Shown in pieces: positions 44,343-45,202 of a DNA stretch of 64,000 nucleotides. The translations under genes were made by a program, and so were the position numbers. The notes under the pieces were generated by a model, which saw nothing but the letters and a program-made list of their open reading frames with translations, had not been told where the DNA came from and made no database searches. This stretch comes from a virus. Taxonomy: Duplodnaviria > Heunggongvirae > Uroviricota > Caudoviricetes. Each line of letters starts with the position of its first letter. Within the stretch, counting starts at the first letter, position 1. The stretch is taken from positions 6,648-70,647 of the IMG/VR virus record IMGVR_UViG_3300042303_000041. One strand, written 5' to 3'.

Positions 44343-44520
44343 AACCAGAACACTTATTATACAGTAAAGAACAATAAGAGTCAACAACTTTCTGAAAGAC
44401 CCTACTTTTCAGTAGGGATTGCTAAGAAGTAACCTTCTCAACATCAGAACACTTATTATACAGTAAAGAACAATAAGAGTCAACACTTTTCAGAAAGACC
44501 CTACAAAATAGTAGGGATAA
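44343..44520 (-). promoter_or_regulatory. Tandem-duplicated sigma70 promoter cassettes heading the tRNA array
   Basis: Two copies of about 75 nt of TTGACT...TATAAT with CCCTAC-N6-GTAGGG. Confidence 0.85.
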
Positions 44521-44564
44521 AAACAAAAAACCCTCGGAGCTTTCACTTCGAGGGTTTTGGTAAA
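44520..44564 (-). terminator. Intrinsic terminator with overlapping antiterminator arm
   Basis: AAAACCCTCG-loop-CGAGGGTTTT-TTGTTTTT; 5' arm is also complementary to 44588-44601. Confidence 0.85.
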
Positions 44565-44578
44565 GAGACTAAGTTCTC

Positions 44579-44704
44579 TTATTTCTTCTTACCAAAACCC
44601 TTCGTATCCTCAATCGCATAGCCAAATGATGGGCGTGTGCTATTCCATACGGCTACTATCGGTAGCTGTTTTCTTAAACTGGAATGGCAAGATTGCGATG
44701 TCAT
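44579..44704 (-). CDS. 41-aa candidate attenuator leader peptide
   Basis: MTSQSCHSSLRKQLPIVAVWNSTRPSFGYAIEDTKGFGKKK*; AAGGAA SD; promoter TTGACT-17-TAAAAT at 44758-44786. Confidence 0.7.
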   Translation of the reverse strand: MTSQSCHSSLRKQLPIVAVWNSTRPSFGYAIEDTKGFGKKK

Positions 44705-44782
44705 TGAAAGTAGTTTCCTTGTTTCGGTAAGATAATTCTTACCTTCTATTTAGTATAATTTTAGCGTAGTTTTGAATTAAAG

Positions 44783-45202
44783 TCAATCTTTTTTTGATTT
44801 TTCTGCAAGTTCTTTGTAGCCACGCCCAGTAGGATGAATGCCATCAGCACTCATGTGTTCTTTTGGTCTAGGCAAAACTGTGTCACCGTACTCTTTTGCA
44901 ATGCGCATTATAGCATCATGAGGAATAGGTTTACGATCTTGTCCAGGATCAATCCAGAACACACGATCTGCCTTTACAGCTTCTCGCATCTTTCGAAGTT
45001 CATGTTCTGTCTTTACACCTTTGTGATCATTGGCACCAAGACTGATGATTAAAGTTCTAGCAGGTTGACTAGATGCTTTGGACAAATAATCTTTGTTCCA
45101 TTGCCAGCTGTTCCAACCACCACGAGAATAACTTACGCATTCTTTACGAGCCATTGAAGTTCCAACAGCAATGCTATCACCAATAATCAAACATTCAAGC
45201 AT
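44783..45202 (-). CDS. SGNH/GDSL hydrolase
   Basis: IGDSIA, SLGAND, DGIHP. Confidence 0.88.
   Translation of the reverse strand: MLECLIIGDSIAVGTSMARKECVSYSRGGWNSWQWNKDYLSKASSQPARTLIISLGANDHKGVKTEHELRKMREAVKADRVFWIDPGQDRKPIPHDAIMRIAKEYGDTVLPRPKEHMSADGIHPTGRGYKELAEKSKKD

Follow-up and report, generated by a model that had tools for sequence, protein, structure and literature searches.

Enterobacterial leader-peptide attenuators read the supply of one or a few amino acids: the trpL, hisL, leuL and pheL leaders each respond to a single one, the thr leader responds to Thr and Ile, and the ilvGMEDA leader responds to Ile, Leu and Val. The T-box binds one specific uncharged tRNA directly, without a ribosome or an open reading frame (ORF), and acts through competing antiterminator and terminator helices. 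Phage tRNA arrays, for their part, are usually seen as constitutive cargo that serves to match codon usage or to replace tRNAs destroyed by defence systems. Here we describe an element at the head of such an array in a 64-kb stretch (the window) of a 168-kb lake-phage genome (IMG/VR record IMGVR_UViG_3300042303_000041). It consists of a promoter, a leader ORF of 41 codons in which every one of the 20 amino acids occurs, and overlapping antiterminator and terminator hairpins. We consider it probable that this element controls the phage tRNA operon as a ribosome-mediated (leader-peptide) transcription attenuator and that it samples the whole tRNA pool.

In its working, the element is most like the multivalent ilvGMEDA and thr leaders. 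With the enterobacterial systems it would share a translated leader, a stop codon at which a ribosome that has finished the leader blocks the antiterminator, an overlap between the antiterminator and the terminator 5′ arm, and read-through on hungry codons. The enterobacterial leaders contain runs of the regulatory codon, whereas the phage leader holds about one codon for each amino acid or split codon box, and they control biosynthetic enzymes, whereas the phage element would control tRNAs. The phage element also comprises three segments (the antiterminator and the terminator, preceded by a hairpin that may cause pausing) instead of the classical 1:2, 2:3 and 3:4 pairings with a protector, and because it has no protector segment, the default of an untranslated transcript is expected to be read-through. 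When we searched the Rfam leader families with cmscan (Trp_leader, His_leader, Leu_leader and Thr_leader), only chance-level, sub-threshold matches were returned; one of them is a His_leader match of 22.5 bits, against a gathering score of 49, on the opposite strand.

Two other systems invite comparison. The ilvBNC operon of the actinobacterium Corynebacterium glutamicum has a leaderless leader-peptide attenuator with three hairpins (PMC11857589), which resembles the phage element in that the leader ORF lies at or near the 5′ end of the transcript and in its three-hairpin antiterminator/terminator logic. It differs in being cellular, in sensing branched-chain amino acids and in controlling enzymes, whereas the phage unit heads a tRNA operon and would sample all amino acids; most phage copies are likewise leaderless, whereas the window copy has a 5′ untranslated region (UTR) and a Shine–Dalgarno motif. 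The T-box is similar in that the state of tRNA is the signal and in that translation-related genes are controlled by competing helices, but the phage element would sense decoding speed for all tRNAs, and it has no specifier or T-box motif; the Rfam T-box model gave no match at E ≤ 1 in 43800–45300. A full-text search of the literature for attenuators or leader peptides that regulate phage tRNA genes found none described.

All parts of the attenuator lie on the minus strand (Table 1). Most had been described in a sequence-only reading of the window, and its account held up in all details that were checked. The leader promoter, TTGACT-17-TAAAAT at 44786–44758, is present and matches the consensus at 10 of 12 positions; its −35 hexamer overlaps the stop codon of an upstream gene for a 139-residue protein, which ends at 44783. 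A sigma-70-type promoter is found at the equivalent position in relatives (57 distinct upstream sequences). A 'late-like' sequence that had been proposed in addition, TACTAAATA at 44747–44755, does occur, but the genome shows no enrichment of CTAAATA (25 coding-strand sites against 26 expected), and we dropped it as a promoter motif. The proposed Shine–Dalgarno motif, AAGGAA, is likewise in place, but it stands 11 nt from the ATG, and this long spacing is a weaker point. The leader itself has the composition that had been claimed: 41 codons, 20 amino acids, 34 distinct sense codons and all six Ser codons, with only ACA and GTA repeated among the first 36 codons.

The RNA elements follow at the 3′ end of the ORF. 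An inverted-repeat search identified the antiterminator as an 18-nt repeat (44551–44568 with 44584–44601) that is 89% complementary and that includes the 14-bp duplex already noticed in the sequence (44588–44601 with 44551–44564, one pair being G–U). The terminator is a 13-nt repeat (44527–44539 with 44546–44558) that is 92% complementary and is followed by T6GT5. The two repeats have 8 nt in common, 44551–44558, so the antiterminator and the terminator are mutually exclusive, as had been predicted. The stop codon, which adjoins segment 1 as delimited in Table 1, falls within the antiterminator 5′ arm. In the minimum-free-energy fold of the window transcript, the antiterminator is formed (z = −4.4 against shuffles), and in folding, the canonical terminator forms once the antiterminator 5′ arm is masked. 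The locus therefore has the layout of an attenuator: the promoter is followed by a short ORF whose start signals are credible, a terminator separates this ORF from the genes to be regulated, the antiterminator overlaps the 5′ arm of the terminator, and the stop codon is placed accordingly. The match between leader and array (19–20 amino acids each) is one of whole sets, not of a run of one codon.

Table 1. Features of the tRNA-array head in the window (positions count from the first nucleotide of the window)
Feature	Position	Strand	Details
Leader promoter	44758..44786	-	TTGACT (44786-44781), 17-nt spacer, TAAAAT (44763-44758); consensus scan
5′-UTR hairpin	44726..44743	-	GGUAAGA-AUUA-UCUUACC, from folding; followed by Shine–Dalgarno-like AAGGAA (44720-44715)
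Leader ORF	44704..44579	-	MTSQSCHSSLRKQLPIVAVWNSTRPSFGYAIEDTKGFGKKK; 41 sense codons and TAA (44581-44579)
Mid-ORF hairpin	44649..44669	-	Core GCUAC-CGAUA-GUAGC, from folding
Antiterminator 5′ arm (segment 1)	44584..44601	-	Codes for the last codons, KGFGKKK; adjoined by the stop codon
Antiterminator 3′ arm (segment 2)	44551..44568	-	Last 8 nt (44558-44551, AAAACCCU) double as part of the terminator 5′ arm
Intrinsic terminator	44521..44558	-	Stem AAAACCCUCG...CGAGGGUUUU and U-tract UUUUUUGUUUUU; inverted repeat and fold
Two tandem promoter cassettes	44346..44518	-	Each with hairpin CCCUAC..GUAGGG and TTGACT-17-TATAAT; between terminator and tRNA-Gln
tRNA array	39186..44256	-	27 genes, all 20 amino acids (ARAGORN); tRNA-Gln(UUG) first (44256-44183)

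We then sought relatives of the element. Among GenBank phages, neither a blastn search with the 600-nt region nor a tblastn search with one leader peptide gave a match, and the family is known from metagenomic contigs of uncultured freshwater phages only; a comparison based on another gene places Methylophilales phage Melnitz and Pelagibacter phage HTVC008M nearest among cultured phages. In protein databases, the family appears only as unnamed or 'hypothetical' metagenomic products, NCBIfam gave no match to the leader, and Pfam gave only a YpeD-like match of 12 bits against a cutoff of 27. Diverged leader copies located 5′ of tRNA-Gln were recovered through contigs that share a phosphoesterase gene inside the tRNA array, and an alignment of five leaders, used as the query, yielded 80 more loci. 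The resulting main family comprises 89 loci, with 67 different sequences at the nucleotide level and 53 different peptides, which are 33–45 residues long. A second subfamily (subfamily 2; core EYRTPFIGSDNQSW) was exposed by partial nhmmer matches and a composition scan, and its loci were then gathered by motif search, giving 58 usable loci with 34 distinct peptides. Three divergent forms (L094, L103 and L137) are each represented once. The protein hidden Markov model (HMM) of the main family missed subfamily 2 and these single forms in the same loci, even at E ≤ 10.

Across the approximately 150 related loci, the leader ORFs are intact and 31–45 codons long. The combination is also specific: the fetched loci together contain 19,704 small ORFs, of which 72 pair all 20 amino acids with a nearby terminator, and all of these are leaders of this kind except for one unrelated ORF, found in two loci. 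One decayed leader was also seen (L237:1513-1614). It is a truncated ORF of 33 residues that ends in SGVL and is followed by another gene, with no antiterminator and no terminator, and it shows that the element can be lost.

Both hairpins of the switch are kept and covary in these relatives, as the sequence-only reading had anticipated. In a covariation set of 62 distinct sequences, 93.1% of the cells of the antiterminator and mid-ORF hairpin are paired, with nine pairs changed on both sides; when the register of this pairing was slid, the figure was 36–57%, and none of 500 shuffles matched the observed values. Of the terminator cells, 97.8% are paired, with four pairs showing compensatory changes. 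Mean stabilities are −23.3 kcal/mol for the antiterminator and −17.9 kcal/mol for the terminator, and the antiterminator is the stronger of the two in all 65 of 65 sequences and, in subfamily 2, in 38 of 39. Masking of the antiterminator 5′ arm gives the terminator fold in the main family, and the stop codon lies within that arm in all main-family sequences and in the inspected examples of subfamily 2. The shared segment imposes a further match: terminators that start with CCCC co-occur with antiterminator 5′ arms that start with GGGGG, as three-way pairing demands.

The compensatory changes come at the expense of the peptide. Relative to the tail GFGK, the arm pairs UUUAAG/CUUAAA, UUCUGU/ACAGAA and UUUUGA/UCAAAA encode GLRK, GSVK and GFEK, respectively, and a larger rearrangement encodes GWDG. 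Because the arms co-change in this way, the peptide tail is constrained by RNA pairing and not by peptide function. The mid-ORF hairpin is also retained, at about the same place, as CCACU-N4-AGUGG in relatives, with the compensatory variants CCAUU/AAUGG and CCG/CGG. In the trp leader, a pause hairpin synchronizes polymerase and ribosome, and the mid-ORF hairpin may be a candidate RNA-polymerase pause or synchronizing hairpin of this type. An invariant CACG follows about 11 nt past the hairpin in most relatives and about 17 nt past it in the window; that it marks a hairpin-stabilized pause site is an idea we hold only weakly.

We asked how unusual the composition of the leader is. The window leader covers 24 of 24 decoding classes, a scheme that counts the 20 amino acids but divides Leu, Arg and Ser by codon box and keeps AUA apart from AUY. 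All 20 amino acids are present in 0.6% of 41-residue windows in the phage's own proteins, and the window contains 197 small ATG ORFs, so that composition alone is not significant; its significance comes from conservation in relatives and not from the single copy. In the main family, 34 of 53 peptides contain all 20 amino acids and the other 19 contain 19, 16 of them lacking only Val. In subfamily 2, the full set is present in 23 of 34 peptides and 19 amino acids are present in nine more. L094 fits all 20 within 31 residues and L137 within 37; the phage composition gives full-set probabilities of 3 × 10^−4 at 31 residues, 4 × 10^−3 at 38 and 8 × 10^−3 at 41.

This complement persists while its members move, which agrees with the expectation that relatives would conserve diversity and not sequence. 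Cys is found either near the N terminus or after Trp, and Tyr at four places, with exactly one Tyr in each of the 53 main-family peptides. In the lineage of the window, His has relocated (KH became KQ, and SCH was gained), and Gln, Asp and Glu also change position among relatives. A column shuffle expects full sets in 6.5 of 52 peptides, with a maximum of 16 in 5,000 shuffles, and would remove Tyr from approximately 15 peptides and Gln and Cys from 11 each, whereas in the actual set Tyr and Gln are missing from 0 peptides and Cys from 1. We also followed gains and losses with parsimony states on a maximum-likelihood tree, a test that is subject to reconstruction and alignment errors. Of 30 losses of a single-copy residue, 21 are offset by the same amino acid elsewhere in the peptide on the same branch, against 5.5 ± 1.9 under the null, and none of 5,000 permutations reached 21. 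Five of the nine uncompensated losses are of Val. These comparisons indicate that the amino-acid complement is under selection, beyond what descent explains.

Coverage extends from amino acids to codon boxes. All 68 distinct leader ORFs use both Leu boxes, both Ser boxes and CGN; 58 also have AGR, and both AUA and AUY occur in 64. All 24 decoding classes are covered in 36 of the 68 and 23 in another 30 (overall range, 22–24), whereas random ORFs drawn with phage codon usage cover 17.5–18 classes and reach all 24 with a probability of 1 × 10^−5 to 5 × 10^−5. Across the family, four-fold boxes lean to NNA and NNG, which fits the U34 tRNAs of the phage (ACA, 85% against 34% in the genome); given that the sequences are related, we regard this preference as suggestive. 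Where the residues fall is also relevant to the switch. The last five codons, which form the 5′ arm, bring no new amino acid in 49 of 52 peptides, and the newcomer closest to the stop is usually Asp, seven codons ahead of it. Judging by known ribosome footprints, a ribosome that stalled much beyond this position may no longer leave the antiterminator free to form.

The start signals of the ORF vary in kind. In most relatives, the −10 hexamer ends 6–7 nt before the ATG, so the mRNA should be leaderless in most loci, whereas a minority with a 5′ UTR, including the window, carry a Shine–Dalgarno-like motif instead. Three of these minority loci (L002, L082 and L196) have a 5′-UTR hairpin with a covarying stem, and L191 has a 5′ UTR with a Shine–Dalgarno-like motif. 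Members of subfamily 2 switch between a leaderless ATG and a Shine–Dalgarno motif with TTG or GTG. The replacement of one initiation signal by another argues that the leader ORF is translated.

The unit always stands at the head of its array, with no tRNA genes upstream. In the main family, the first tRNA is tRNA-Gln(UUG) wherever the switch is intact and sequence is available, except in L185, in which the first tRNA is tRNA-Arg and the U-tract was not found. tRNA-Gln(UUG) is also first in 38 of 38 subfamily-2 loci, whereas the divergent L137 starts with tRNA-Glu and L094 with tRNA-Ile. The arrays of relatives encode tRNAs for 19–20 amino acids, with both codon boxes of Leu, of Arg and of Ser served, and in the 168-kb genome, ARAGORN found no tRNA genes outside the 27-gene array. 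By our tally, in ~42 of ~60 main-family sequences tRNA-Gln lies 50–54 nt past the U-tract with a promoter-free gap between them, and in these sequences tRNA-Gln would be transcribed solely by read-through of the terminator.

The short spacer before tRNA-Gln is itself conserved. It consists of a hairpin with a CAUCGU loop and the tail GUUCUUUAAAAAUYUGCGUACCAA, present at 44290–44340 (minus strand) in the window and in nearly all relatives, and the stem covaries (GGC/GCC, GGG/CCC, UAGC/GCUA and GGAG/CUCC; GUGG/CUAC in the window). In the window, this spacer of about 50 nt is 3′ of the inserted promoter, which identifies it as transcribed RNA and not a promoter; it is possibly a signal for tRNA precursor processing. 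A promoter between terminator and array occurs in the window, in ~13 other main-family sequences and in 37 of 38 subfamily-2 loci, and where the array has its own promoter, the attenuator would only add to array transcription and would not gate it. The two further promoters that had been reported between the terminator and the first tRNA in the window are indeed there (44483–44455 and 44384–44356; 11 of 12 consensus matches each). Their cassettes, 44346–44419 and 44445–44518, are a tandem duplication spaced by 99 nt, with 89% identity.

Taken together, the comparative test supports the ribosome-mediated attenuator that was proposed from the single sequence. We infer that the leader ORF is translated and that stalling on it leads to read-through under some physiological trigger, as follows. 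Once the leader promoter fires, a ribosome would translate the 41-codon ORF behind RNA polymerase. With all codons decoded promptly, the ribosome at the stop would hold the antiterminator 5′ arm single-stranded, the freed 3′ arm would pair downstream to form the U-tailed terminator, and transcription would stop before tRNA-Gln. A ribosome delayed within roughly the first 34 codons would allow the stronger antiterminator to form first, and polymerase would enter the tRNA genes. With about one codon for each amino acid or split box, slowness of nearly any tRNA species would turn the array on. Because the regulated product is tRNA, the feedback would close on the tRNA pool: the product would relieve the signal in a homeostatic loop on the whole pool. 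Codon-usage mismatch, tRNA cleavage and starvation are candidate triggers. We lean, by a narrow preference, toward the more specific proposal that this is a phage sensor that turns slow decoding of any single tRNA into synthesis of the full tRNA set and that it is the first attenuator known for tRNA genes. For such a whole-pool sensor, the causes of slow decoding could include a mismatch with host codon usage, tRNA shutoff and defence by anticodon nucleases.

Several observations weigh against this interpretation. Coverage is not strictly complete: Val is missing from 16 of 53 main-family peptides although the arrays encode tRNA-Val, and an internal Met is missing in 29 of 68 leader ORFs. The window leader has four UCN Ser codons and a GCC for which, under strict wobble, the phage has no tRNA, and the share of its codons that phage tRNAs can decode (88%, against 81% genome-wide) is not distinctive. 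The peptide motifs HLPLxSGW..R and EYRTPFIGSDNQSW are well conserved, although the RNA hairpins account for part of this. In L189, L191 and L196, the minimum-free-energy folds contain the terminator together with the antiterminator's upper part. As the untranslated default is read-through, the switch needs efficient initiation at the leader. In the window, the two strong promoters 3′ of the terminator can bypass the attenuator and limit its leverage to part of tRNA transcription, and the promoter after the terminator in 37 of 38 subfamily-2 loci has the same bearing. Finally, the RNA data amount to a few low-depth contigs from four metatranscriptome runs, and translation and regulated termination are inferred from the comparative evidence. 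Such contigs reveal neither RNA ends nor levels and may include DNA carry-over. One of them, 151 nt long and identical to 44432–44582, spans the terminator, and in another, which belongs to a relative, the terminator tail continues into the pre-tRNA-Gln leader; we draw no conclusion on expression or read-through from either.

Two simple accounts of the composition were considered and rejected. Leaders that lack Val do not correspond to arrays that lack tRNA-Val, as tRNA-Val(UAC) is present in all five arrays checked. Nor is the window leader restricted to codons read by phage tRNAs, as its decodable share and its UCN Ser codons attest.

The switch could also be an attenuator that answers to another signal, either arrest of the nascent chain by the peptide core, as in the TnaC and SecM leaders, or ribosome availability or initiation, with the broad amino-acid content being secondary. 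Nascent-chain arrest leaders, among them TnaC, SecM and the Erm leaders, are marked by an invariant peptide motif at a set distance from the site of arrest or the stop. The geometry would serve whatever causes stalling, the core motifs (HLPLxSGW..RP in the main family and EYRTPFIGSDNQSW in subfamily 2) are strongly kept within each subfamily, and Trp and Arg are nearly invariant. Yet almost no core sequence is common to the two subfamilies, the main-family HMM failed to find subfamily 2 in the same loci, and the distance from core to stop varies through indels. The core motif also overlaps the covarying RNA hairpin, and the lineage of the window has QLPIVAVW in its place yet keeps a hairpin. 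An arrest peptide, moreover, does not need a complement that is itself selected, with residues that move yet stay present. We regard a signal of this other kind as unlikely.

Alternatively, the unit might act in trans, as a micropeptide or as a small RNA of ~180 nt, with a terminator that merely ends it and with tRNAs supplied by leak or by other promoters. The antiterminator, at ~19–22 bp, is in principle long enough for RNase III, and on this account it could stabilize the 3′ end or be a site of RNase III processing. The ORF is conserved without interruption and is labelled a hypothetical protein by gene callers in metagenomes, and the array has its own promoter in the window and in subfamily 2. 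Attenuator leaders with functions in trans do exist, for example, peTrpL and rnTrpL (PMC7298713 and PMC6614838). A functional peptide, however, should fix its residues, whereas here Cys, Tyr, His, Gln, Asp and Glu each change place but stay represented, and it should not give up its tail for RNA pairing. The unit occurs only at the heads of tRNA arrays, and the ~42 main-family variants with tRNA-Gln 50 nt past the terminator have no other promoter for it. The overlap between terminator and antiterminator is also kept and covaries in step, down to the pairing of CCCC with GGGGG. A role in trans as the whole explanation therefore has, in our judgement, only a small chance of being correct. Coincidence, that is, an ordinary small ORF beside an ordinary terminator whose oddity comes from searching 64 kb, is extremely improbable: the 0.6% rate predicts about one such ORF among the 197, but the ~150 related loci that keep the ORF, both hairpins, the stop position and the complement already contradict it.

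If the attenuator interpretation is correct, the phage would gauge decoding speed across the whole genetic code and supply tRNAs on demand. Attenuation would then extend from one to three amino acids to twenty, and from enzymes to tRNA genes, as an extreme multivalent case with 20 inputs and one output and with closed feedback on translation capacity. The family offers about 90 natural sequence variants in which 'composition, not sequence' could be dissected, and synthetic biology would gain from the element a compact, naturally occurring reporter of how well translation is running overall.

The array and its surroundings contain further features. Between tRNA-Gln and tRNA-Lys, an Rfam tRNA match of 41.7 bits at 44017–44084 (minus strand) was not called by ARAGORN. 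At 41607–41698 (minus strand) lies a tRNA of 92 nt whose anticodon is UAU and whose extra arm is long; it is kept in the arrays of L082, L083 and L084. The array of L089 includes a tRNA with anticodon CUA ('Pyl' in ARAGORN) that is amber-suppressor-like. ARAGORN also identified a permuted tmRNA with the tag ANDTVYALAA at 9568–10059 (minus strand).

The 139-residue gene upstream of the leader was found in 80 IMG/VR contigs, in which the leader lies beside it only in L002, and gene order around it is fluid. In two of the relatives, L031 (at ~1560–1630) and L050, an ORF of 23 residues 3′ of this gene (MWTTPSATDMRFGFEITMYVMNR) is PqqA-like and has its own promoter-like sequence and terminator, which suggests that some relatives encode a peptide resembling a PQQ precursor. 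Farther upstream in the window, 45718–46056 (minus strand) is predicted to encode a small protein in which the N-terminal part is hydrophobic and a natural His run (..AQHGHHHHHHGS..) comes after it.

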